From the NCBI GenBank assembly GCA_040752695.1, contig JBFMGO010000124.1, positions 1 through 16,736 of the forward strand: a stretch of 16,736 bases of DNA, given 5' to 3'. The DNA comes from a bacterium (GTDB lineage Bacteria; SZUA-182; DTGQ01). The first letter of the stretch is position 1, and each line of letters starts with the position of its first letter. The translations under genes were made by a program, and so were the position numbers. A model generated the notes under the pieces. It did not search any database. It was not told the DNA's origin and saw only the letters and a list, made by a program, of their open reading frames with translations. Below are positions 3 to 16,609 of this stretch, piece by piece.

Positions 3-608
3 GACTTGAAAATGGAAAAGAACGATGCCGTGGAATTGGCCTTTAAACACAATTTTTCCCAGAAAGCCTTTACCAGGATTTCCCTTTATCACTATACGAT
101 TAATGACTATATCAAGAGGTATTCATTTACCGATCCCAATACTGGCGCGAATAGGAGGGGCTGTTATAACATAGACAACGTACAACTGACAGGGGCATCG
201 GTTGACGGAGCTACTGAAATCATGAGCCAACTGACGTTACGGGGGAACATCAGCTATCAGAAGAGCAAAAAAGAAGGTGACATAATGGATAAGACAGAAC
301 TGAGTGATGAGCTCGACTACCTGCCTGAGTGGAAGAGTGCGGTGGGATTTGATTTGAAACTTCCCTATCAAGGAGCGGTATTCAGTACAAGTATAAGGTA
401 CGTAGGTGAGCAGAAGACCACATCATCAAATAAAATCGTAGAACTTGATTCCTATACCACTACAGACATAGAGCTGAAGATCCCCGTAACAGAGCGGGGT
501 GAGATCAGCATCTATGCGGAAAATCTCTTTGATGAACACTATGAAGAGCGTTTTGGTTATCCGATGCCGGGAAGAATTATCGGGGCAGCAGTAAAGATAG
601 GCTTTTAA
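3..608 (+). CDS. TonB-dependent outer-membrane receptor, C-terminal part (5'-truncated by the window edge)
   Basis: The frame is open from the window start. It shows alternating beta-strand patterns and a typical TBDR C-terminus (YAENLFDEHYEERFGYPMPGRIIGAAVKIGF) ending in Phe. Confidence 0.9.
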   Translation, partial: DLKMEKNDAVELAFKHNFSQKAFTRISLYHYTINDYIKRYSFTDPNTGANRRGCYNIDNVQLTGASVDGATEIMSQLTLRGNISYQKSKKEGDIMDKTELSDELDYLPEWKSAVGFDLKLPYQGAVFSTSIRYVGEQKTTSSNKIVELDSYTTTDIELKIPVTERGEISIYAENLFDEHYEERFGYPMPGRIIGAAVKIGF

Positions 609-629
609 TTTTGAGGAAAGGAGATTGAC

Positions 630-1538
630 GTGAACAACATGAACAATATGAACAACGGATTAGCCTGGAAATTGAGAGGTATGGCGATAGTACTGTTGGT
701 TTTCGCGGCAGTATTGTCCGGAAAGGTCCTGGATGCAGGCGCGAAAGAAGCACCGAGGACGCAGATGTATCTGGTGAGCGTCGGAAGTGGGGACCCGGAT
801 AATATCACCCTGCGGGCGGTCAATGTAATCAAGGACTCGGATATCATTTTTTGTAACCAGGGTATGAGGGATAAATTCCCCATCCTCCTGCAAGGTAAGG
901 AAATCCATGATCCGGGATTCGGCATTTTTGGCATTTACGGAAAAACCCCGGAAGAAGCAAAAAAGAATAAGCGGTTCAATTATGAAGAAAAGATCAGGGA
1001 GTTTAATGAAATCGACTCCATTATCCGCAAGGCCGTTAAGGACGGTAAAATCGTATCAGTGCTGGACAGCGGAGATCCCACCATCTATGGACCGAATATG
1101 TGGTACATGGAGGCCTTTGAAGACCTGAATCCGGAAGTTGTGCCTGGGCTCAGTTGTTTCAATGCAGCTAATGCCGCCTTGAAAAAAGGAGTGACTACAG
1201 GGAAGAAAACGCATTCGGTTATTCTCACGGCTTCTTTCGGCAATGAAGATTACAGTGGCACCGACAGCATAGAGAAACTCGCAGTCAACCAGGCCAGCAT
1301 GGTATTTTTTACCATGTTCCTCGATTTGGAGGAAGTAGTGAAACAGCTCAGGGTGTATTACCCTCCCGACACACCGATAGCCATCGTGCTTTATGCAGGC
1401 TACAGGGAAAAAGAAGAAATCGTTCAGGGCACACTTGACACCATTCTGGAGAAAACAAAAGGAGGAAAACTTCCTCATGAACACTTGATATATGTCGGCG
1501 ATTTTCTGACTAACCGGTACAAGACTGCTGGTAAATGA
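630..1538 (+). CDS. Tetrapyrrole (precorrin/cobalt-precorrin) methyltransferase family protein, CobM/CbiF-like, with a predicted N-terminal Sec signal peptide
   Basis: TP_methylase motifs YLVSVGSGDPDNITLRA, LDSGDPTIYG, VVPGLSCFNAANAAL, YPPDTPIAIV and GTLDTI. AGGAG RBS precedes the GTG at 630. N-terminus KLRG-MAIVLLVFAAVLSG...DAGA|KE looks like a signal peptide. Confidence 0.85.
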   Translation: MNNMNNMNNGLAWKLRGMAIVLLVFAAVLSGKVLDAGAKEAPRTQMYLVSVGSGDPDNITLRAVNVIKDSDIIFCNQGMRDKFPILLQGKEIHDPGFGIFGIYGKTPEEAKKNKRFNYEEKIREFNEIDSIIRKAVKDGKIVSVLDSGDPTIYGPNMWYMEAFEDLNPEVVPGLSCFNAANAALKKGVTTGKKTHSVILTASFGNEDYSGTDSIEKLAVNQASMVFFTMFLDLEEVVKQLRVYYPPDTPIAIVLYAGYREKEEIVQGTLDTILEKTKGGKLPHEHLIYVGDFLTNRYKTAGK

Positions 1539-1570: not shown

Positions 1571-2341
1571 ATGAAGAATAAGACCTGGATAAGCCTTTTG
1601 GCAACCGTATTTATACTTGGCATGGTATCAGTGGCACAGGGTCACATGCTCTGGCTGAATGCCAGTAATTACTCTCCCAAGGTAGGAGAGGATGTGATGA
1701 TAGAAATAGGCTTTGGGCACAAATACCCCCATACTGAGACGGTTAAGGAAGACAGAATTGAGCGCATCTTTATACGCGACTCCAAAGGTCAGGAATTGCC
1801 GCTTGAAAAAGTTGCTCCTGAGAAATACCGGTTTTCGCCGAAGACCGAAGGACAATACGAGGCAATTGTAAAGTTCAAACAGGGCTTTGTCTCAAATACT
1901 ACCGACGGCCGCAAAATGGGGAATAAAAAAACATTGCCTAATGTCGTTTCCTGCTTCCAATTCAGAATGGATGCCAAGGCGCTGATTAAAGTCGGCTCAA
2001 AAAAGGTGAGCGGCCCTTCTCAGCCAGGCGATTTGCCACTCGAAATCATTTTGCCTGAGAATATCAATAAGCTCAAAGTTGGTGATGAATTGCTATTGAA
2101 AGTGATGTATCTGGGTAAGCCGATTGGCGGAGCTAAGGTCAGTGCTACTGATGAAAACACTGCTTTGCAGCAGGAAGGCAAGTGGGTGCATGAACTGGAA
2201 AGCGATGCACAAGGAGTTGTGCGTATGAAATTGACTTCAAAAGGGTCATGGCTTATTACCGCTACCTATGAGGTGCCGTTTCCTGATCAATCTGAATGCG
2301 ATAAATCCACCTTCCGTATGACCTTAACCCTTAAGCCTTGA
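1571..2341 (+). CDS. DUF4198-family periplasmic protein (Ni/Co uptake-associated)
   Basis: GGAGG RBS at 1561-1565 before ATG 1571. Signal peptide ends AQG|HMLWL. Motifs IGFGHKYP, LPLEIIL, VMYLGKPIGGAKV and SDAQGVV..GSWLI match this family. Confidence 0.8.
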   Translation: MKNKTWISLLATVFILGMVSVAQGHMLWLNASNYSPKVGEDVMIEIGFGHKYPHTETVKEDRIERIFIRDSKGQELPLEKVAPEKYRFSPKTEGQYEAIVKFKQGFVSNTTDGRKMGNKKTLPNVVSCFQFRMDAKALIKVGSKKVSGPSQPGDLPLEIILPENINKLKVGDELLLKVMYLGKPIGGAKVSATDENTALQQEGKWVHELESDAQGVVRMKLTSKGSWLITATYEVPFPDQSECDKSTFRMTLTLKP

Positions 2342-2704: not shown

Positions 2705-4150
2705 ATGGAGGTAATGAAGAAAATGCGTGAAGTTAAGGGAGAAATAAGTCAATGTCACCATCCTCATTTGGAAAGACAGCTTAGTTTATTTTCTGCATTT
2801 ATTCTGGTAGTGGCCAATATGATCGGCACCGGCATTTATACAACATCGGGATTTATTATGCAGGAGTTGGGCAACACGGCCGCTTTGTTCCTCTGTTGGC
2901 TCTTTGGGGGTATTTTTGCCCTGTGCGGTGCCCTGTGTTATGGAGAATTGGGAGCGATGTTTCCCCATTCAGGGGGAGAATATGTGTTTCTGCGGGAAGG
3001 CTTTGGCAAAGGGATGGCCTTTCTCTCCGGGTGGATATCTTTAGTGGTTGGATTTTCCGCCCCTATCGCTGCCTCGTCTGTGGCTTTTGCTACCTATTTT
3101 TTAAAAGTTTTTCCATTCGTCATTGATAAAAAGGTGGTCATTCCTATCCTGGGGAGTAATGTACTCACTTTATCTCCGATTACCCTTTTGGCAGTAACTA
3201 TTATTGTCCTCTTTTCCCTGGTTCATTATTACGGTCTGTTTTTTGGCAGCAGGGTACAAAATGGACTGACCATATTTAAAATCACCTTTATTGTCCTTTT
3301 CGTCGTTGCCGGTTTTTGGTTCGGTAAAGGTACTATGGAACACCTTCTTCCTGCTCAGTTGGATTTAGGGGCCCTATTTTCAGATAAGTTTGCCGTCTCT
3401 TTAATATTTATTTCCTTTGCGTACAGCGGCTGGAATGCGGCGGTTTATCTTGGCGGTGAAATTAAAAATCCTTCACGCAACATTCCTCTGTCCCTCTTTA
3501 GCGGAACATTTTTAGTAATATGTTTATATCTTGTTTTAAATGCCGTTTTTATCTATGCCCTGCCGCCAGCCAGCATGAGCGGGGTGCTGGAGGTGGGAGA
3601 TGCGGCAGCGTCCGCCTTGTTCGGTAACAATATCAGTCAATACCTCGCTGTGGCAATTGCTATTGGGATTCTTTCGGCCGTGAGCGCCATGATTGTAACA
3701 GGCCCGAGGGTTTATTACGCTATGGCCAAAGACGGTGTTTTTTTCAAGCGGTTTGGGGAGGTCGACAAAGTGCATAAAACTCCGGCTCACTCCCTTTTCC
3801 TTCAGGCATTTATTGCGGCTGTCATGGTTCTTACCTCATCCTTTGATGCTCTTCTTATCTATATTGGATTTACCCTTTCCCTGTTTGCCATGATGTCCGT
3901 AGTGGGCCTCATGGTCCTGAGGATAAAGCATCCTTCAATCAAAAGAGAATACAAAACATTCGGATATCCCATCACTCCGGTTTTTTTTATCCTGGGTAAT
4001 CTATGGATCATCTATTACTCGATAAGAAGCAGATTCATCGTTTCTCTTTATGGATTAGGGACTATTGGACTGGGCTATCTGGTTTATCGGTATTTTAGAA
4101 GTGAGGGGGAGAAAAAGGCATTGCCATTGGATGTATTGAGTATAGATTAG
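2705..4150 (+). CDS. APC-superfamily amino acid permease (start could be 2705, 2714 or 2723)
   Basis: About 12 hydrophobic segments. Motifs NMIGTGIY, GALCYGELGAMFPHSGGEYVFL, FAYSGWN, GGEIKNPSRNIP and GPRVYYAMAKDG. Confidence 0.93.
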   Translation: MEVMKKMREVKGEISQCHHPHLERQLSLFSAFILVVANMIGTGIYTTSGFIMQELGNTAALFLCWLFGGIFALCGALCYGELGAMFPHSGGEYVFLREGFGKGMAFLSGWISLVVGFSAPIAASSVAFATYFLKVFPFVIDKKVVIPILGSNVLTLSPITLLAVTIIVLFSLVHYYGLFFGSRVQNGLTIFKITFIVLFVVAGFWFGKGTMEHLLPAQLDLGALFSDKFAVSLIFISFAYSGWNAAVYLGGEIKNPSRNIPLSLFSGTFLVICLYLVLNAVFIYALPPASMSGVLEVGDAAASALFGNNISQYLAVAIAIGILSAVSAMIVTGPRVYYAMAKDGVFFKRFGEVDKVHKTPAHSLFLQAFIAAVMVLTSSFDALLIYIGFTLSLFAMMSVVGLMVLRIKHPSIKREYKTFGYPITPVFFILGNLWIIYYSIRSRFIVSLYGLGTIGLGYLVYRYFRSEGEKKALPLDVLSID

Positions 4151-4245
4151 GATTATAACGAGAAAGCCGGATTAAGTAAGTGAAAATCATGATCTTTCCA
4201 CCTGCTTATATGCCTTTCTATGAAGGCGAAAAAAGGAGATCTTCC

Positions 4246-4716
4246 GTGAAAAGAATATATGTCATTTTATTTTTATCAAGCGCACTTTTCCTTTTGGGAG
4301 CAAGAGATAATCATGTGTTCTCTCATGGTATTCAGTATACGATAGATAAAGCGGAAACTATGATCGTTAGGGTGGAATACGACGATGGCGAGCCGGCAAG
4401 TTATTCAGAAGTAAAAATCTTTTCTCCGGACGATCCGAAGGTTGAATATCAAAAAGGCCGAACGGATAAAAAAGGACAGTTTTCCTTCCTGCCTGATAAA
4501 GGAGGAGAGTGGAAGGTTGTTATAACAGATGGCATGGGGCACGCTATCGCAGCCGAGGTATTACCGGATAATAAGGCAGGCACCGGCCTGGCGGCGGTGC
4601 AATCCTCTGGGCTAACGAGATGGCAGAAGGCAGCTATAGCCCTTAGTGTGGTCTGGGGATTTATTGGCTGGGCTTTTTTCCTTAAGGCGAGGAATATGAG
4701 AAGGACAAATCCATGA
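4246..4716 (+). CDS. NikL/CbiL-like accessory protein of Ni/Co uptake (exported domain plus C-terminal membrane anchor)
   Basis: AAGGAG RBS before GTG 4246. Signal peptide ends VFS|HGIQ. Motifs YDDGEPASYSEVKIFSP, GRTDKKGQFSFLPD and GEWKVVITDGMGH, followed by a C-terminal TM helix. Confidence 0.7.
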   Translation: MKRIYVILFLSSALFLLGARDNHVFSHGIQYTIDKAETMIVRVEYDDGEPASYSEVKIFSPDDPKVEYQKGRTDKKGQFSFLPDKGGEWKVVITDGMGHAIAAEVLPDNKAGTGLAAVQSSGLTRWQKAAIALSVVWGFIGWAFFLKARNMRRTNP

Positions 4717-5347: not shown

Positions 5348-6112
5348 GTGAACATGGAGAGGATCGATCTGTCAGGTATCCCGGAAACGATGCAAAATCC
5401 GCGTTTGTCCATTCAGAAAATGATTCAGAATCAGGATATGAGGGGGTTGCTTGAAAAGGCCGCTGAATTACATGGCCATTTGTGCAGCTTTGTAACCATG
5501 GGTATCATGGCCGGCAGTCTGGCTGTTCGGAAATTGGCAGAGGCATCGGCGAATGACGGCATGGAAAGGATCACCTGTATCATCGAGTGCAATAACTGTT
5601 TTTCTGATGGCGTCCAGATCAGTACTGGCTGCACCTTCGGGAACAATGCCCTGATCTTCCGCGATCTGGGGAAAAACGCATTCACATTGATCAGGCGGGA
5701 AGGCAGGGCTTTTCGGGTTTCTGTGCGGCCTGAGGCCAGGGAGATCGTAGATGCCGTGCAGGAGAAAATATACCCTGGCTCAGAAGCACTGTTCGATAAG
5801 GTGGTCACCAGGAGGAGCGGAACCCTTGAAGAAGGCGAACTGTTGAAAAAACTGTTTCTGAAAGGCTCCTACGACCTTTTGACCGTACCGCCGGAGGCTC
5901 TTTTTTCCGTTCAGGAGTGCCGGTCGGAATCCGAACAGTATGCGCCGATTTTTAAAAGCTACACCTGCGCTCTGTGCGGAGAGAAGATTATGGAAACCCG
6001 GGCCAGGATCAGGGATGATAAAATTGTCTGCATACCATGCAGCCGGGACAGCTATTTCCAGCTTGACGGATCAGGCATCAGCCAGAAGAGGGGAGATCAG
6101 CAATGCCGATGA
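5348..6112 (+). CDS. FmdE-family protein (formylmethanofuran dehydrogenase subunit E domain) with C-terminal Zn finger
   Basis: Motifs AAELHGHLC and IIECNNCFSDGVQISTGCTFGNNAL, plus C-terminal CALCGE...CIPC. AGGAG RBS upstream. Confidence 0.88.
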   Translation: MNMERIDLSGIPETMQNPRLSIQKMIQNQDMRGLLEKAAELHGHLCSFVTMGIMAGSLAVRKLAEASANDGMERITCIIECNNCFSDGVQISTGCTFGNNALIFRDLGKNAFTLIRREGRAFRVSVRPEAREIVDAVQEKIYPGSEALFDKVVTRRSGTLEEGELLKKLFLKGSYDLLTVPPEALFSVQECRSESEQYAPIFKSYTCALCGEKIMETRARIRDDKIVCIPCSRDSYFQLDGSGISQKRGDQQCR

Positions 6113-7149
6113 CGGAAAAAGCCCGCAAGGGCAAGGACAACTGTCTGCACCAGGAGCAGGACAGTCGCCCGGGTCAGCGGGAAGATGGTGACTGCCTGCT
6201 GCTGGATCAGGATTTCTGGATACGGCATTGGGAGCGGGTTGAAAAGCTGTCCCAGAAAGGCTTGAGTAAAGAGTTTGTCAAACCGCAGCGGTGGGACAAG
6301 CTCTCGAAAGATTTCAGCCAGAGGTGGAAGCCGACTAAAGAAGATCCGATGAGAGATGAAATGATCTCATTGCTGAAAGAGCGGAATATCCTCAGGGAAG
6401 GGATGAAGATTCTGGATCTGGGGTGCGGAACCGGCAGGTTTGCCATTCCTTTTGCTCAGGCAGGCGCACTGGTGACTGCCGTGGATGTGTCCGAAGGTAT
6501 GCTTCGCTACCTGGAGGAGGAAACCCCCAAAGATGTGGCCTCCCGGATCACTCCCGTCAAACTTGACTGGCACGGCGCGGACATTGATCGACTGGGATTT
6601 CGCTCTGCCTTTGACCTTTCCTTCGGTCACATGACTCCTGCCATCACAGGGCCGGAAACCTTCCTGAAGTTTCTGTCTACCTCAAGACAGTGGTGCGTCA
6701 TGGCGACCTGGTCCGGGCAACGAAGACAAAACACGGCAGAAGGAGTGTGGCGGCACCTTACCGGTACAGCGTACGACCAGAATGCAGGGGATATCACCAT
6801 CCCCTTTAACCTGCTGTATTGTATGGGATATCATCCATCTATCGAGTTCCGGTATCACCGGCATGAAAGCCTGGTCGATCCTGAGGCTGAGGCGGATCAG
6901 CTCTTCGATCTGTTTCACGGATACGTGCAAGGAGACGAAAGGCACGTCAGACAAAGGATCCTTTCCTTTTTGCAGGGCATGGCCCGGGAAGAAGGAAAGA
7001 CGAGCCGGGAAGAAGGGCAGGGGAGCCAGGAGAAAGAGCAAGGGGCACAGGAGGGAATGAACGGAAGACACGGCATGATAAACAAAGTACTTACCGGGTG
7101 CATAGGCCGGATGGTCTGGAATGTTGATCGGGCGTGTTCGGACGTATAA
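6103..7149 (+). CDS. Class I SAM-dependent methyltransferase
   Basis: Motif I ILDLGCGTGRFA, VTAVDVSEGML and FDLSFGHMTPAI. Overlaps the end of the FmdE gene, consistent with translational coupling. Confidence 0.88.
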   Translation: MPMTEKARKGKDNCLHQEQDSRPGQREDGDCLLLDQDFWIRHWERVEKLSQKGLSKEFVKPQRWDKLSKDFSQRWKPTKEDPMRDEMISLLKERNILREGMKILDLGCGTGRFAIPFAQAGALVTAVDVSEGMLRYLEEETPKDVASRITPVKLDWHGADIDRLGFRSAFDLSFGHMTPAITGPETFLKFLSTSRQWCVMATWSGQRRQNTAEGVWRHLTGTAYDQNAGDITIPFNLLYCMGYHPSIEFRYHRHESLVDPEAEADQLFDLFHGYVQGDERHVRQRILSFLQGMAREEGKTSREEGQGSQEKEQGAQEGMNGRHGMINKVLTGCIGRMVWNVDRACSDV

Positions 7150-7307: not shown

Positions 7308-9062
7308 TTAAGTTTGGTTTACCCGGTCTTTCAACCTCTTCACTGCTTCCTGGCGAATCCATATAATAACTTCATCATTTTGAGCAATATCTGCCAGAGC
7401 AGCTTTATCTCCCAGCCTTCTCATTGCTTCCTGGCGAATCCACACAGGAATTTCATCGTTCTTAACAATATCTGCCAGAGCAGCTTTATCTTCCAGCCTC
7501 TTCACTGCTTCTCTGAGGATATCTACATTTTTATCGTTTTTGACGATATCTGCCAGAACAGCTTGATCTTCCAGCTTTTTCACCGCTTCCTGGCGGAGCC
7601 GTATAATAACTTCATCATTTTGAGCAATATCTACAAGAGCAGCCTGATCTTTCAATTTTTCCATTGCTTCTTTGCGAATCCATATAGGAACTTCGTTATC
7701 TTTAACAACATCTGCCAGAGCAGCTTGATCTTCCAGCCCTTTTACTGCCTCTCTGAGAATATCTATATTCTTATCGTTCTTGAGAATATCTGCCAGAGCA
7801 GTCTGGTCTTTCAACTTTTTCACCGCTTCCTGGCGAACAGACAAGTCTTTGTCGTTTCTGGCAATATCTGCCAGAGCAGCTTGATCTTCCAACCTTTTTA
7901 CCGCTTCACGGCGAATGGATGCATCCCGGTCATTTTGAGCGCTGTCCGCCAGGGCAGCCTGATCTTTCAGTTTCTCCACCGCTTCCAGGCGAACGGATGA
8001 ACTCACATCGTTTCTGGCAATATCTGCCAGAGCGGCCTGGTCTTCCAGCTTCTTCACTGCCTCCAGGCGAATTCTTTTATCCCTGCAATTCTTGGCAATG
8101 TCTGCCAAGACAGGTTGATCATGTATCCGGCACAGTATCAAGCCCGTTACCTTTTCGTATTCATAAACGTCCGGGTCATCTTCATCATCTTTTGCAATGC
8201 CTGCCAGGACAGCCCGTAAAATGGCCTGATTCGTTATACGGCCTATTACTGCTTTACGAACATATGAACTCATATCGTTTATGGCGATGTCTGCCAGAGT
8301 AGTTTGATCTTCCAGCTTTTCCGCTGCCTCCTGGCGAACGAATACATCTTCGTCGCTTCTGGCGATATCTGCCAGAACAGCTTGATCCTTCAATTTCTTC
8401 ACTGCTTCTTTGCGAACATATGGGCTCGTATCGTTTCTGGCAATATCTGCCAGAGCAGCCTGGTCTTCCAGCTTTTTTACTGCCTCCTGGCGAATTCTTC
8501 TATCCCTTGCATCCCTGGCAATCTCTGCCAAAACAGCATCGCTTTTTGCACCATCCAGCAAAATAGCCTGATCTTTGATGCAGGCCATCGCTGTTCTTCG
8601 AACATATGAACTCACATCGCTTACAGCAATACCTGCTAAAATAGTCTGATCTTTCAACCTCTTCACTGCTTCCTGGCGAATTCTCTCATCCCTGGCATTT
8701 TGGGCAATATCCACAAAAGCAGTCTGATCCTCCAGCTTCTTCACCGCTTCCTGGCAGATGTTAAAAACGGCTTCATCCTTCATGAGAGTTTCTTCTATAA
8801 GAATTTTCACAAGTAAATCTTGGTTTCTCAACCTCTCAGCCGCCGTAAACCTGACGAGGCAACTCCTATCGCTCTTTGCAATCTCAGCAAGCAAGTTCTG
8901 GTCTTCCAGCTTCTTAACAGCAGACTTTCGAACGTCTTCCTCAGGATCATTCCTGGCAATCCATGCAAGTTTTTTCTGGTTATCCAGTCCATCTATGCTG
9001 CAAAGACGAATTTTCTGATCAGAATGCTTCCAACTGGGGCAAAACAAGGTTAATAGACCCAT
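7308..9062 (-). CDS. HEAT-like (alpha-solenoid) tandem-repeat protein, ~20 repeats of 26-27 aa
   Basis: Repeat consensus is approximately DQAALADIARNDxxxxVRQEAVKKL(E/K). Likely start is ATG 9062 (AAAGG upstream, MGLLTLFCPSWKHSD). No signal peptide or catalytic domain is visible. Confidence 0.85.
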   Translation of the reverse strand: MGLLTLFCPSWKHSDQKIRLCSIDGLDNQKKLAWIARNDPEEDVRKSAVKKLEDQNLLAEIAKSDRSCLVRFTAAERLRNQDLLVKILIEETLMKDEAVFNICQEAVKKLEDQTAFVDIAQNARDERIRQEAVKRLKDQTILAGIAVSDVSSYVRRTAMACIKDQAILLDGAKSDAVLAEIARDARDRRIRQEAVKKLEDQAALADIARNDTSPYVRKEAVKKLKDQAVLADIARSDEDVFVRQEAAEKLEDQTTLADIAINDMSSYVRKAVIGRITNQAILRAVLAGIAKDDEDDPDVYEYEKVTGLILCRIHDQPVLADIAKNCRDKRIRLEAVKKLEDQAALADIARNDVSSSVRLEAVEKLKDQAALADSAQNDRDASIRREAVKRLEDQAALADIARNDKDLSVRQEAVKKLKDQTALADILKNDKNIDILREAVKGLEDQAALADVVKDNEVPIWIRKEAMEKLKDQAALVDIAQNDEVIIRLRQEAVKKLEDQAVLADIVKNDKNVDILREAVKRLEDKAALADIVKNDEIPVWIRQEAMRRLGDKAALADIAQNDEVIIWIRQEAVKRLKDRVNQT

Positions 9063-9209
9063 GGTAAAGCCTTTCATTTTTTTGATTAATGATATTTTTT
9101 GCCATATAAGCATATATAAGCACATGTATAGTTTATATACACATGTACAGATTATATACACTTGCTATTTCACATGATGAATTGAAGATTCTTATAGGAT
9201 GGGAGTATC

Positions 9210-10263: not shown

Positions 10264-10474
10264 TAATAATCTCTTGATAAACAAGAGGTTATTAGTTCCA
10301 GAGCTGTTCGAAATACCAGGCTGGGTCCAGTGGTATCCCGGTCGTATGAGGCTTTTGGGACAGGCCCTTTAAGGCTACACACCAAACCGCAACGAGTACC
10401 CTGTGCCGTACAAAGAAAAATCCTTTAAAAACCTTACCACCGGAAGGTGGGGTAACTATGGCTGCCAGGGTGCT
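10263..10474 (+). other. Structured 5' leader (candidate cis-regulatory RNA, family not identified)
   Basis: 14-bp hairpin at 10263-10295. TACCA..CTGG/CCAG..TGGTA hairpin at 10314-10335. AGTACCCTG-t-GCCGTA (10395-10410) pairs with TATGGC..CAGGGTGCT (10457-10474), enclosing CCACC-GGAA-GGTGG. The structure ends just before the RBS. Confidence 0.4.
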
Positions 10475-10492
10475 GAGAAAGGAGAAACGAGT

Positions 10493-11641
10493 ATGAAAAA
10501 AGTATTTTTAGCAGTGTTCAGTGTGGTTTTTGTATGTGCCGTAATGTTTTCATCTTTACCGTCTCCCGTATACTCTCAGGTATCTCTTCCATCAGTAAGT
10601 ATTTCCCCCGTACTAACGCTGATCCAGCCAGTATACCTTTTATGTATCGAGCAGGACTCCGGAGCACTGGATATTGAAGGAGCCAGGGGAAGGATAGGAC
10701 AAGAGGTTAAAATTCCGGTAAGAATTCAAAATGCTCCGAACGGAGTTGCCGCCCTCGGTTTTGAAGTTGCCTATAACACGGCTGTCCTGAAATATACGGG
10801 CTTTGAGCGGGGAAATCTCGTTACATCTTTTAACATGTTTGATGTCAACATCGATTCTCCCGGCAAACTGAAAGTAGGTGGATTCACTATTGGCAGCGGC
10901 GTTTCAAAAGGTGCAAGCGGCTATCTGGTCTGGTTGAAATTTACGGTCGTTGGCGGTCAGGAGAAAATCTGTTATTCCCTGACCCTGAGTAATCTGACTG
11001 ACGAGATTGCCAATTTCCCTCAAACCGGAGGATGTTTCTGTATCCAAAGCTGCAATGGGGACCTGAACGAAGATGCAGCGATTACGCCGATGGATGCTTT
11101 AATCGCTTTTAAGTGCTATCTTGGATCGGGTGATTGTCCTGATTGTACAGATGTCAATGAAGATGGCAAAGTTACTCCGGCTGATGCTCTTTGCCTGTTT
11201 CAAAAGTATCTCGGCAAGCCTTCCTGTCTGGATGAACCTGCCCAACCTGTAACGGTGCTCTCCCCGGCGCGGGGGATGACCTCGTCCCAGGAATTTTCGA
11301 TTGACAACCAGAATCACATCGTGATTAAGGTTACTTTTAGTGATCCGGTGCAGACGGCAACCGTTGTTGTGAGAAAAACCCTGATCCTGGATGCCGAAAA
11401 GGACCACAATGCAGCAGGAACCATCAGTTGGTCTTCTGATCGAAAAGAGTTGACCTTTCGGACAACGAACACTGTCTCTAATCTGCTGCAATTTAATCCC
11501 GACGGTTTTTTCTCGCTCCAGCTTATAGGTACAGATACTGGTAATGGCGCAATCAAAGATGACAACGGGAATCCGCTCGATGGAGATGAGAATGGTACGT
11601 ATGGCGGGAACTATACAACCGGCTTTTGCTTAATTGGCTAA
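10493..11641 (+). CDS. Secreted cohesin-domain + dockerin-domain + Ig-like (Big_5/SbsA-type) protein
   Basis: AAAGGAG RBS before ATG 10493 and signal peptide MKKVFLAVFSVVFVCAVMF. Cohesin-like GQEVKIPVRIQNAPNGVAALGFEVAYNTAVLKY...LVWLKFTV. Duplicated dockerin Ca-binding motifs GDLNEDAAITPMDAL and DVNEDGKVTPADAL. C-terminal IKVTFSDPV...WSSDRKELTF...IKDDNGNPLDG. Confidence 0.8.
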   Translation: MKKVFLAVFSVVFVCAVMFSSLPSPVYSQVSLPSVSISPVLTLIQPVYLLCIEQDSGALDIEGARGRIGQEVKIPVRIQNAPNGVAALGFEVAYNTAVLKYTGFERGNLVTSFNMFDVNIDSPGKLKVGGFTIGSGVSKGASGYLVWLKFTVVGGQEKICYSLTLSNLTDEIANFPQTGGCFCIQSCNGDLNEDAAITPMDALIAFKCYLGSGDCPDCTDVNEDGKVTPADALCLFQKYLGKPSCLDEPAQPVTVLSPARGMTSSQEFSIDNQNHIVIKVTFSDPVQTATVVVRKTLILDAEKDHNAAGTISWSSDRKELTFRTTNTVSNLLQFNPDGFFSLQLIGTDTGNGAIKDDNGNPLDGDENGTYGGNYTTGFCLIG

Positions 11642-15021: not shown

Positions 15022-15056
15022 TCAGGGTAAAGATGCTTCAGGGTAAAGATGCTTCA
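15022..15056. repeat. Exact 16-bp tandem duplication of the lysS 3' end including the stop codon
   Basis: TCAGGGTAAAGATGCT at 15022-15037 and 15038-15053, followed by TCA. Confidence 0.85.
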
Positions 15057-16609
15057 CGAAGTCGATCCCGGACAAATTCCACACCAGCGGTTTTGACGAA
15101 CCAGCCGGCCCGGGGGCCATTCTCTTTGTCTATAAGAGCTGTATAAAAGGCCTGAAACACCTCCTTGATGGAAAGCTCTTTCTCTTCCTTGGCTGCCTCG
15201 TAGAAGGATCTGTGAATCTCTTCGGCAGATATGTCGATTTCCTGCGTGCCTTTCAAGAGATCGGACAAAAGGCGAGAGAGTTTCCCCAATGCGTTGCGCT
15301 GGGCTTGAGAGAGAGATTGAACCGATTGGGGGAGGGTTTCGGCTACGTTGAAGCGGTAGTCTTTAGGTGCGAAGTGCTCCAGCCAATTGAGTGCGTACTG
15401 GCAACGCTCCTCAAGTTCCCCGGCTGACGAATCGGGGATATGATATCCGCCCCGCTGTAAAATGGCCTTGACTTTCGAGGGGTCACCGCCGGCAATCTGG
15501 ACAATGTTGATCAGGTGATTGAAGGGGACCCCTATCGGGACAAAGTCACTGGCCCGTGAAAGCTCCAGTGCCCGTGGATCACGGTACTTGGCGCTTTCAT
15601 TGTCAACTTCATCGAAGACACTCAGCAACTGGTTTACCGGATCGAAATTGATCCTTTGCTTTGGCATGGCTTTAATAATAAGGTATCGCAGGACATCTGC
15701 GGGAACCACTTTAAGCACATCCTCGATAGCCACGACATTCCCCTTGCTGGAGGACATATCGCCCATACCTTCCAGCCGGATCCACTCATAAACAATGGGA
15801 AAGGGAGGGGTTCTGCCGAATACTTTCTGGCTGATCTCCTGCCCCGTATCATAAGAGCCGCCCTTGCTGCCGTGGTCCTTGCCCATTGGTTCGATATCCA
15901 CCTTGAGAAAACACCACCGGCTGGGCCAATCGACCCGCCAGGTCAATTTCCCATGTCCCTGAACGGGCATGTTTCCCTGATTGAGGCATTGCCGGCAGGT
16001 ATAGCGCACCAGCCCTTTCCCGCTGTCCCAGCCGGTAACCGCGGTCTGGGCCATGGAGCCGCACTTTTCACAGATGGGAACAAACGGCGACCAGGATGCA
16101 TCGGTCTCTTTGCCGGTCAGCCGAAAGAGGATATCACTGATTGTGTCCCTGGCCTCAAGTGCCTTGATAATGACTTCATTATAGGCTCCGCTCTTATAGA
16201 GCTCACTGGCGCGCAAAACCGTTACGCTGATTTTTAACTGATCTAAAGAGGCCAGGAAAGGCGCCAGAAAGTGCTCGGCATAACTGGCGTGATGATCGCA
16301 GGGGCAGGGGATCTCGCTCAGCGGGTGACCGATGAAATGCTGATATTTCTGGGGGTTCAGAAAAGGGTAGACCTTACGCAGAGGATCATAGTCGTCAGCG
16401 ATGTAGAGCAACTCGGCCCTCTTTCCCCTCTCCTGTAAAATGCGGTAGATAACGTCTGCGGTTGCCACTTCACGCAGGTTTCCAATGTGGATGCTGCCCG
16501 ACGGAGTGATCCCGGTGACAATCCGGTAAACATGATCTTCCGGCATGGGCCGATTGAGGATCTGATCTGCAATCTGGTCCCCCCAATGTTGACTTTTTCT
16601 CTCCGCCAT
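15038..16609 (-). CDS. lysS: Lysine--tRNA ligase, class I (LysRS1)
   Basis: HIGH-like TGITPSGSIHIGN, ADDYDPLRKV, GKLTWRVDWPSRW, EPMGKDH, KMSKS-like DMSSSKG and C-terminal GPRAGWF. Confidence 0.96.
   Translation of the reverse strand: MAERKSQHWGDQIADQILNRPMPEDHVYRIVTGITPSGSIHIGNLREVATADVIYRILQERGKRAELLYIADDYDPLRKVYPFLNPQKYQHFIGHPLSEIPCPCDHHASYAEHFLAPFLASLDQLKISVTVLRASELYKSGAYNEVIIKALEARDTISDILFRLTGKETDASWSPFVPICEKCGSMAQTAVTGWDSGKGLVRYTCRQCLNQGNMPVQGHGKLTWRVDWPSRWCFLKVDIEPMGKDHGSKGGSYDTGQEISQKVFGRTPPFPIVYEWIRLEGMGDMSSSKGNVVAIEDVLKVVPADVLRYLIIKAMPKQRINFDPVNQLLSVFDEVDNESAKYRDPRALELSRASDFVPIGVPFNHLINIVQIAGGDPSKVKAILQRGGYHIPDSSAGELEERCQYALNWLEHFAPKDYRFNVAETLPQSVQSLSQAQRNALGKLSRLLSDLLKGTQEIDISAEEIHRSFYEAAKEEKELSIKEVFQAFYTALIDKENGPRAGWFVKTAGVEFVRDRLREASLP

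Follow-up and report, generated by a model that had tools for sequence, protein, structure and literature searches.

The window, by which we mean the whole stretch of 16,736 nucleotides analysed here, opens with the end of a gene for a TonB-dependent receptor, and the gene under study begins 21 nt past the stop of that barrel ORF (Table 1). This gene (positions 630-1538, forward strand) starts with GTG and encodes 302 amino acids. It is followed by a gene for a DUF4198 protein, which we take to be NikK-like, and, two genes downstream of 630-1538, by a gene for a LAT-type permease. An earlier, sequence-only reading had proposed that 630-1538 encodes an exported relative of the precorrin methyltransferases that binds, relays or remodels a tetrapyrrole or metal complex imported by the receptor. 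The permease was absent from that reading, and it offers a candidate route for SAM into the periplasm. Among the NCBIfam models, the receptor fragment matches the CU-motif TonB receptor best, below the cut-off.

Table 1. Features of the window, together with the leader-bearing class I methyltransferases of other loci (positions refer to the window unless a locus is named).
Feature	Position	Strand	Basis or remark
3' end of TonB-dependent receptor gene (C-terminal part of the barrel; one Cys, in RRGCYNID)	3..608	+	PF00593, E 1.6e-15
Ribosome-binding site AAGGAG	618..623	+	6 nt before GTG; from sequence
Predicted Sec signal peptide, residues 1-38 (K14/R16, hydrophobic M18-G31, A-G-A before K)	630..743	+	from sequence; homologues keep the pattern
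Mature class III (CbiF-fold) methylase domain, 264 aa	744..1538	+	PF00590; AF2 pLDDT 94.2; Foldseek and VIA matches to CobM
Glycine motif S50-V-G-S-G-D55 (CobM Pro10 position is S53)	777..794	+	sequence
Family-specific insertion, about H93-F125, replacing the CbiF YAGSLV/SA loop region	906..1004	+	alignments
V144-L-D-S-G-D-P-T-I-Y-G-P-N-M-W-Y159	1059..1106	+	retains SAM motif GDPxxY; V-x-D and W-Y stand in place of CbiF R-x-H and E-Q
P172-G-L-S-C176 SAM motif (CobM Ser112 position is C176)	1143..1157	+	alignment
DUF4198 protein, signal peptide, His at predicted mature N-terminus	1571..2341	+	PF10670, E 1e-30; alignment
LAT/BasC-like APC permease, candidate SAM/SAH exchanger	2705..4150	+	PF13520; BasC 6f2g, E 1.6e-45
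NikL-like membrane-anchored protein	4180..4716	+	NF058648 NikL family, E 2e-10, below cut-off
FmdE-family protein, C4 zinc finger	5348..6112	+	profile search; FmdE domains recur in related loci
Leaderless class I methyltransferase	6103..7149	+	some related loci also have such genes next to FmdE
Leader-bearing aKMT-like class I methyltransferase	L151:8374-9150	-	beside permease or in same genome; also L178, L180, L181
Leader-bearing aKMT-like class I methyltransferase	L152:6034-6867	+	beside permease or in same genome

Further along the window, 7308-9161 (reverse strand) encodes a 617-aa protein of about 29-residue HEAT-like repeats (weak PF13646), 10403-11641 (forward strand) a protein with a leader and with cohesin and dockerin domains, here in a diderm, and 15038-16609 (reverse strand) a class I lysyl-tRNA synthetase (PF01921). 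A cohesin-bearing surface protein is also encoded downstream of the cassette described below in locus L001. A search of sequencing runs with positions 600-2400 of the window listed none.

Leader, fold and family of the 630-1538 protein

The protein begins with K14-L-R16, a hydrophobic stretch from M18 to G31 and A36-G-A38 directly before K39, and this leader is its sole segment with a 19-residue hydropathy above 1.5. We followed the leader through the best 120 homologues (65-100% identity), using hydropathy and pattern heuristics, which are a different basis from SignalP. The hydrophobic stretch (mean at least 2.0) is kept in 117 of the 120, an (A/V/S/G)-x-A site in 100 and a net basic n-region in 102, where the failures are mostly gene calls starting inside the leader. 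All three features, with either AxA or a lipobox accepted, are present in 87/120. The leader is 39-41 residues long in 87/120, and its sequence is variable. Lipobox variants such as IPGC were found by regular expression in 3/120, and further ones can be made out by eye among distant matches. The twin-arginine motif of Tat substrates occurs in none of the 120 homologues, and none was flagged in 149 distant matches. Since the hydrophobic stretch, the AxA site and the basic n-region recur in the close homologues, the leader pattern is, judged by sequence, not a product of chance. The protein is likely exported via Sec and cleaved after A38.

The basic-hydrophobic-AxA leader had been described in the sequence-only reading, and we read it in the same way. 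The case named there as contrary, that of leaderless homologues starting near MYLVSVG, was not borne out by these homologues: Met stands at the position of the internal M46 in only 3/120 homologues, so that a start at this site is not conserved. We therefore consider it very improbable that 630-1538 encodes an ordinary or membrane-tethered cytoplasmic precorrin methyltransferase with a leader that results from a wrong start call or stays uncleaved as an anchor. A GAGG upstream of M46, the existence of leaderless relatives and the name precorrin-4 methylase, which databases give to many homologues, speak for such an enzyme. However, the leader is kept together with its AxA site or lipobox, with a basic n-region the domain is predicted to face outward, and the family comparisons below place the protein outside CbiF. 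Among 50 selected proteins from distant relatives, the domain is fused behind leader-bearing DUF4198 (P0136, P0142 and P0162), molybdopterin-oxidoreductase-like or rhodanese domains, or is duplicated.

The PF00590 match covers residues 46-272 (E 5e-38; 131.6 bits against a gathering score of 27.8). CobM is the best Foldseek match of the modelled mature protein (TMq 0.73-0.74), and a VIA comparison with CobM structure 3ndc gave Z 22.4 and an rmsd of 2.7 over 230 residues, within the range of the CobM/CbiF structures overall (Z 21.7-22.4, rmsd 2.5-2.8). A search for a solved structure found no member of the family, and all clusters that an ESM Atlas search returned were uncharacterised PF00590 ones. 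Conservation in 113 family rows, from which leaderless rows were left out and which include some fragments, is highest in the columns of the SAM motifs: G148 (97%), D149 (95%), P150 (90%), Y/F153 (97%), P172 (93%), G173 (96%), S175 (88%) and A256 (88%). The glycine motif does read SVGSGD, as had been pointed out. However, it is hardly a sign of lost SAM binding, as the other SAM motifs are the best conserved, G52 is kept in 96% and Pro at position 53 in 53% of the wider family. In the comparison of the pocket with CbiF that had been proposed, fold and SAM motifs were kept, but of the five SAH contacts of CobM given in the available text of PMC6478909 only Asp83 and Ala193 are identical, while Pro10, Ser112 and Leu165 are changed to S53, C176 and T228.

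The opposite side of the pocket is different. The CbiF positions YAGSLV, R-x-H, E-Q, ELTxP..Q and TRxxGRTP, conserved at 84-100% in 19 CbiF rows, are replaced across the family, which has D/E at 146 in 72% and W at 158 in 75%. By spacing from the Asp of GDP, NirE residues R100, K102, R111, E114 and E115 map to V144, D146, P155, W158 and Y159, so that the NirE network is replaced as well. According to the part of the NirE study available to us, these five are substrate-binding or network residues, and K102A reduces SAM binding (PMC4731766). By sequence comparison, the cofactor side of the pocket is kept and the tetrapyrrole side rebuilt. The loss of the Arg/His/Glu network around the tetrapyrrole site in the family weakens the idea of a tetrapyrrole ligand, whereas SAM binding and methyl transfer by the protein are predicted from the kept motifs. 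The insertion at H93-F125 varies between paralogues, some of which carry a Cys pair in it: at least two Cys occur in 16/94 leader-bearing rows, one of them a parsing artefact, against 3/48 other rows, and the 630-1538 protein is not among them. The predicted complex of a methylase dimer and the DUF4198 protein with SAM scored 0.00.

Several comparisons separate the protein from biosynthetic CbiF. It scores 120 bits against TIGR01465, below the cut-off of 259.65, and reaches the cut-off of no NCBIfam model, whereas the genome's own CbiF on contig C81 scores 323.8 bits and lies in a cbi cluster among cbiD, cbiE/T, cbiL and cbiG-like genes (named from reading the ORFs). The window itself has no second PF00590 gene, in line with the earlier remark that it holds no other corrin-biosynthesis genes. 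In a FastTree of 152 rows, which leaves out 7 short units and 26 fragments, 124 rows including 630-1538 stand apart from 21 CbiF-like rows with support 81, and two small leaderless groups (11 rows) nest inside the family. In a 51-row IQ-TREE, a branch at 98/97 sets the 12 CbiF rows off on one side, and 630-1538 falls in a separate group at 100/99. The whole leader-bearing set forms one side of a branch with a support of only 81 (FastTree) and 71/18 (IQ-TREE). Given its score below the family cut-off, its place outside the CbiF clade and the presence of a true CbiF at another site in the genome, the protein is by sequence not CbiF, as the earlier reading had held against an ordinary biosynthetic role. 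A plasmid search for family members found only a true CobM.

CbiF/CobM (1cbf, 3ndc, 4e16; TIGR01465) are nevertheless the nearest named group in the tree and share the class III two-domain fold, GxG, GDPxxY, PGxS and the Ala of the adenine loop. In contrast to them, 630-1538 has a signal peptide, an insertion of about 20-30 residues and replaced tetrapyrrole-site residues at 24-30% identity, and its family is encoded in uptake cassettes instead of cbi operons. The borosin enzymes OphMA and SonM, RsmI and Dph5 are precedents for reuse of the class III fold on other acceptors. They match the protein weakly in profile comparisons, and RsmI and OphMA match its model at Z 16-17. However, they are cytoplasmic and, at 12-16% identity, further away than CbiF, and because of this distance membership in the borosin type was rejected.

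The permease and the other partners of the methylase

We collected loci from 24 GTDB genomes (mostly Desulfobacterota), 80 metagenome contigs, relatives and a phylum sample; one cluster includes Thiomicrospira sp. XS5. The 103 loci with a methylase match, many of them incomplete, some duplicated and two with ordinary cbi genes, contain a TonB receptor in 72, the permease in 49, DUF4198 in 35 and NikL in 21 cases. After removal of hand-listed duplicates and of loci with less than 2.5 kb flank, 40 leader-bearing loci were left, with a receptor in 35, a permease in 29 and DUF4198 in 24, whereas the leaderless loci, only 5 in number, have none of the three on the same strand (0/5 each). The leader is thus found in receptor-adjacent copies, and the earlier placement of the protein with its receptor in an uptake locus fits these counts. 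Loci whose GC content spans 27-56% show the order receptor-methylase-permease, and the stop codon of one gene often overlaps the start codon of the next. No permease lies within 5 kb in 11/40 leader-bearing loci.

Among 201 genomes of one phylum, the permease (>420 bits) is present in 13/17 genomes with the methylase and in 10/184 without it, counts whose independence is overstated because the genomes are related, so that we attach no weight to a p-value for them. Eleven of the 13 permeases lie within about 1.3 kb of the methylase, and 4/17 methylase genomes have no permease above 420 bits. Of the ten genomes with only the permease, one has a methylase copy that narrowly misses the threshold and another has a fragment of it. 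All 5 methylase carriers among 31 relatives also hold the permease. It is the most constant inner-membrane partner of the methylase. Up to four paralogous methylase genes occur per cluster; Desulfonema magnum has four (five domains) in one cluster and a single permease match about 19 kb away. The permeases have a mean distance of 0.44 against 0.76 for the receptors, and in 30 triples, where receptor distances are near saturation, methylase distances follow the permease over the receptor (partial 0.35 against 0.11). A strict one-to-one pairing with receptors was seen only for the PCPU receptor subtype.

BasC is the best PDB match of the permease (Table 1). K192 and Y275 correspond to Lys154 and Tyr236 of BasC, and the family keeps the TM1 G-x-G and the TM6 F-A-Y-x-G-W. 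It is tightly conserved, with a mean column identity of 60% over 20 rows, and the permease at 2705-4150 is 55% identical to that of a locus of 32% GC. According to the available text of PMC6472337, LATs are obligatory exchangers that bind alpha-amino and carboxyl groups. The cassette permease shares the BasC/SLC7 motifs described there but forms a separate family linked to leader-bearing methyltransferases. It has been reported, in the text available, that SAM is carried by fungal amino-acid permeases, Sam3/Gap4 (PMC5177730); these are eukaryotic and import SAM from outside, and the likeness is one of function, outside sequence comparison.

A second, unrelated methyltransferase appears with the same permease. 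Of 11 permeases above 650 bits, 5 come from genomes with the CbiF-fold methylase, 1 from a genome with an adjacent fragment and 4 from genomes with an aKMT-like class I methyltransferase instead. The latter enzyme bears a leader in those 4 genomes, has a GxGxG motif and no receptor beside its gene, and stands beside the permease in two syntenic cases; in G224 and G163 the two genes are tail-to-tail. Its close orthologues occur in 5/201 genomes, four of which are the top permease-only genomes, and three further ones that we checked keep the leader. In G194, the aKMT-like enzyme is present with no permease match. The aKMT-linked permeases nest within the methylase-linked clade at three places. 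No such methyltransferase partner was found for the permease in G116 (695 bits) or in G058, G247, G059, G045 and G040 (430-500 bits).

Since the two unrelated methyltransferase folds have SAM in common, we prefer SAM supply over ligand import as the role of the permease and predict from sequence that it is a SAM-out/SAH-in exchanger, with the reservation that co-occurrence cannot separate SAM export from import. The mitochondrial SAM/SAH carrier supplies SAM to a second compartment by exchange.

As separate observations, the leaderless family members of L068, L072, L079, L080, L098, L108 and L113 lie beside MFS, BCCT or ornithine-cyclodeaminase genes, and a methyl acceptor should be easiest to find with these enzymes. 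The methylase of G012 (L012:7950-8859) and the permease of G028 (L056:16083-17481) are each split into two frames, through either an assembly error or decay.

Metal contexts and possible roles of the cassette

The cassette loci point to different metals. DUF4198, NikL, CbiM-type and CooC-like genes give Ni/Co-type contexts, and PBP_like_2 binding proteins, presumably of the tungstate/molybdate type, give W/Mo-type contexts in some cassettes. Fe-type contexts are marked by ChaN, an Fe2+ transport protein, imelysin and FecCD; TupA-type and FecCD metal transporters share some of the loci. The adjacent receptors are diverse, with several Cys/Sec types (FCYXU and PCPU) and many Cys-free ones, and fall far below the cut-off of the BtuB profile.

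For the 630-1538 operon, Ni or Co is the likely metal. When the receptor of a relative from the same genus is compared with the source genome, it matches two places, C71:1472-3 (73%) and C124:6-605 (67%), which puts the 5' part of the receptor gene at the end of contig C71. The operon likely continues there with a second receptor and DUF4198-like and NikL-like genes, behind a hairpin element that is also found before a CbiM-family gene in G171, and it is this arrangement that makes Ni or Co likely. The element reads AAAGCCATGAAGG, then 20-40 nt with a variable inner hairpin, then CTTCATGGCTTTTT, forming a 14-bp stem followed by a T run. Copies lie at C71:5081-5145 (L190) and near 13088 of C73 (L191) in the source genome (G000), in L052 (three), L055, L056 (two), L188 and L189, and a half copy at L001:2047. 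They precede TonB-receptor operons, an exbBD-tonB operon and the CbiM-family gene. Compensatory changes were absent in 6 copies, no Rfam match was found in the loci scanned, and the strict pattern occurs in 2/201 genomes of another phylum. From its position and shape, the element is a candidate attenuator or operator for Ni/Co uptake. NikR boxes, searched with the consensus from the available part of PMC545781, gave 4 two-mismatch matches in 456 kb of loci, off leader positions where checked, and none in a genome scan.

In the text available, the same work puts nikK and nikL forward as genes for periplasmic components of nickel uptake (PMC545781). The NikKL-MQO/CbiMNQO loci share DUF4198, NikL-like and CbiM-type genes with the cassettes but, as described in that text, are without an exported methylase or APC permease, whereas many cassettes are without Ni/Co genes or have Cys-free receptors. 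The Cys/Sec TonB receptors of NCBIfam (FCYXU, CU, PCPU, PUIUD) often share cassette loci.

SAM is made and kept in the cytoplasm, and SAM-dependent methylation is treated as cytoplasmic. We know of no periplasmic SAM pool. Sec substrates cross the membrane unfolded, so that SAM could not be co-exported with the protein. The explanation that we put first, tentatively and at somewhat less than an even chance, is a periplasmic SAM-dependent methylase that acts on receptor-imported metal cargo and is fed by a SAM/SAH exchanger. The TonB receptor would import a metal complex into the periplasm, to which Sec would export the CbiF-fold protein, its leader being cut after A38. The LAT-type permease would bring SAM out in exchange for SAH, and the methylase would transfer the methyl group to the organic ligand of the complex, e.g. 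a thiol or amine chelator. Methylation of the ligand would then release the metal to DUF4198/NikL and a CbiM-type transporter. Because the metals in the cassette contexts vary, the chelating ligand of the imported complex would be the most likely methyl acceptor. A modification of the receptor Cys/Sec by the methylase was rejected as a general role: many adjacent receptors are Cys-free, and the subtype of 630-1538 pairs with several receptor types.

Alternatively, the protein may be a non-catalytic periplasmic binding protein whose SAM pocket holds an alpha-amino-acid ligand, either SAM/SAH or a metal-chelator complex from the receptor, and passes it to an importing permease, so that uptake would run from receptor to binding protein to permease with no ABC ATPase involved. 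We regard this as rather unlikely. It explains why the gene order mirrors that of receptor, binding protein and permease and why SAM pocket and LAT site both recognise an alpha-amino acid; the catalytic-site residues of CbiF/NirE are lost, and a periplasmic methyl donor becomes unnecessary. However, one permease would have to serve as many as five divergent domains alongside receptors that differ greatly, and the same permease family occurs with the unrelated class I methyltransferase, which has no receptor beside it. Moreover, metal-specific transporters (CbiM-type, TupA-type, FecCD) lie in the same loci, and the leaderless members keep the same motifs, which suits an enzyme.

The sequence-only reading had considered a tetrapyrrole as the ligand. 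In this form, with the exported protein binding, relaying or remodelling an imported corrinoid precursor, siroheme, F430 or haem for cofactor or metal salvage, we find it improbable. CobM/CbiF are the nearest fold, the insertion in the 630-1538 subtype is Lys/Arg-rich, a ChaN haem-binding gene lies in L059, and CbiK and FecCD genes lie beside the permease in L153. The periplasmic CbiK of Desulfovibrio is a precedent. In L011 and L021 the operon is preceded by a cobalamin riboswitch, but these are only 2/23 GTDB loci scanned; one was found in 0/30 metagenome loci and in none of the same-genus loci, and a search upstream of 6 extended loci gave none in front of the cassette. The single RF00174 match in the source genome is on C81 by the cbi cluster, not before the 630-1538 operon. 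In addition to the lost CbiF-invariant residues, the occurrence of cassettes in tungstate/molybdate-type loci and of receptors that are not BtuB argue against a tetrapyrrole, which also leaves the amino-acid permease unexplained. What stands from that reading is a protein that is likely exported, is not CbiF and belongs to a metal-uptake locus; the tetrapyrrole as its ligand is weakened.

In the literature searched (including the available parts of PMC7242693 and PMC7755780, with subscription papers and supplements outside the scope), we found neither an exported homologue of the tetrapyrrole methylases nor the cassette described; the available text of PMC7755780 covers the ordinary cbi cluster only. 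From the sequences, this branch of the CbiF fold is real, widespread and likely exported, lies in a cassette of receptor, methylase and putative exchanger, and is undescribed in that literature. If periplasmic methylation is correct, the whole system would be new, while a binding protein would make it a novel form of TonB-linked uptake. The fold is a known one in either case. More generally, diderms may have a periplasmic methylation compartment in which exported methyltransferases of several unrelated folds draw their SAM from a dedicated SAM/SAH exchanger of the LAT family and the CbiF-derived branch strips Ni, Co, W or Fe from TonB-imported complexes via ligand methylation, a proposal that we think possible but doubtful. 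If true, a bacterial SAM exporter would be named, and the uptake of trace metals by anaerobes with a need for Ni, Co and W under sulfidic conditions would gain a chemical step. The cassette makes periplasmic methylation testable with two purified proteins. By the family comparisons above, many database 'precorrin-4 methylase' genes are not cobalamin enzymes, which affects calls of the B12 pathway from genomes.

Some further features of the cassettes should be mentioned. Receptors beside methylases are split at an in-frame TGA in C-x-x-U or P-C-P-U in L002, L003, L005, L013, L014 and L024, and further ones in L056, L101, L111, L144 and L166; in L018 and L019 this place is taken by Cys. These receptors are consistent, by sequence, with predicted selenoprotein receptor families. 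Such receptors are listed as predicted selenoproteins in PMC12013277 and PMC13188914, whose available text has no mention of these methylases. A 450-aa leader-bearing protein follows the FCYXU-type receptor (L002:1262-2623, L010:5286-6611, L011:6603-7946, L022:6597-7955, L112); it has no Pfam match, and its ESM Atlas leads, below 0.9, point toward XusB/DUF5074-like proteins. A membrane protein of 1050-1120 aa with spermidine-synthase and TPR domains recurs in cassettes (L009:9600-12890, L076, L107, L143), and its spermidine-synthase domain is another SAM-related pocket. Leader-bearing fusions of a nucleoside hydrolase (IU_nuc_hydro) with FmdE also occur in the cassette (L003:8969-10465, L012:9013-10300, L056:10362-11840) and may serve to clear SAH, or products of it, from the periplasm.
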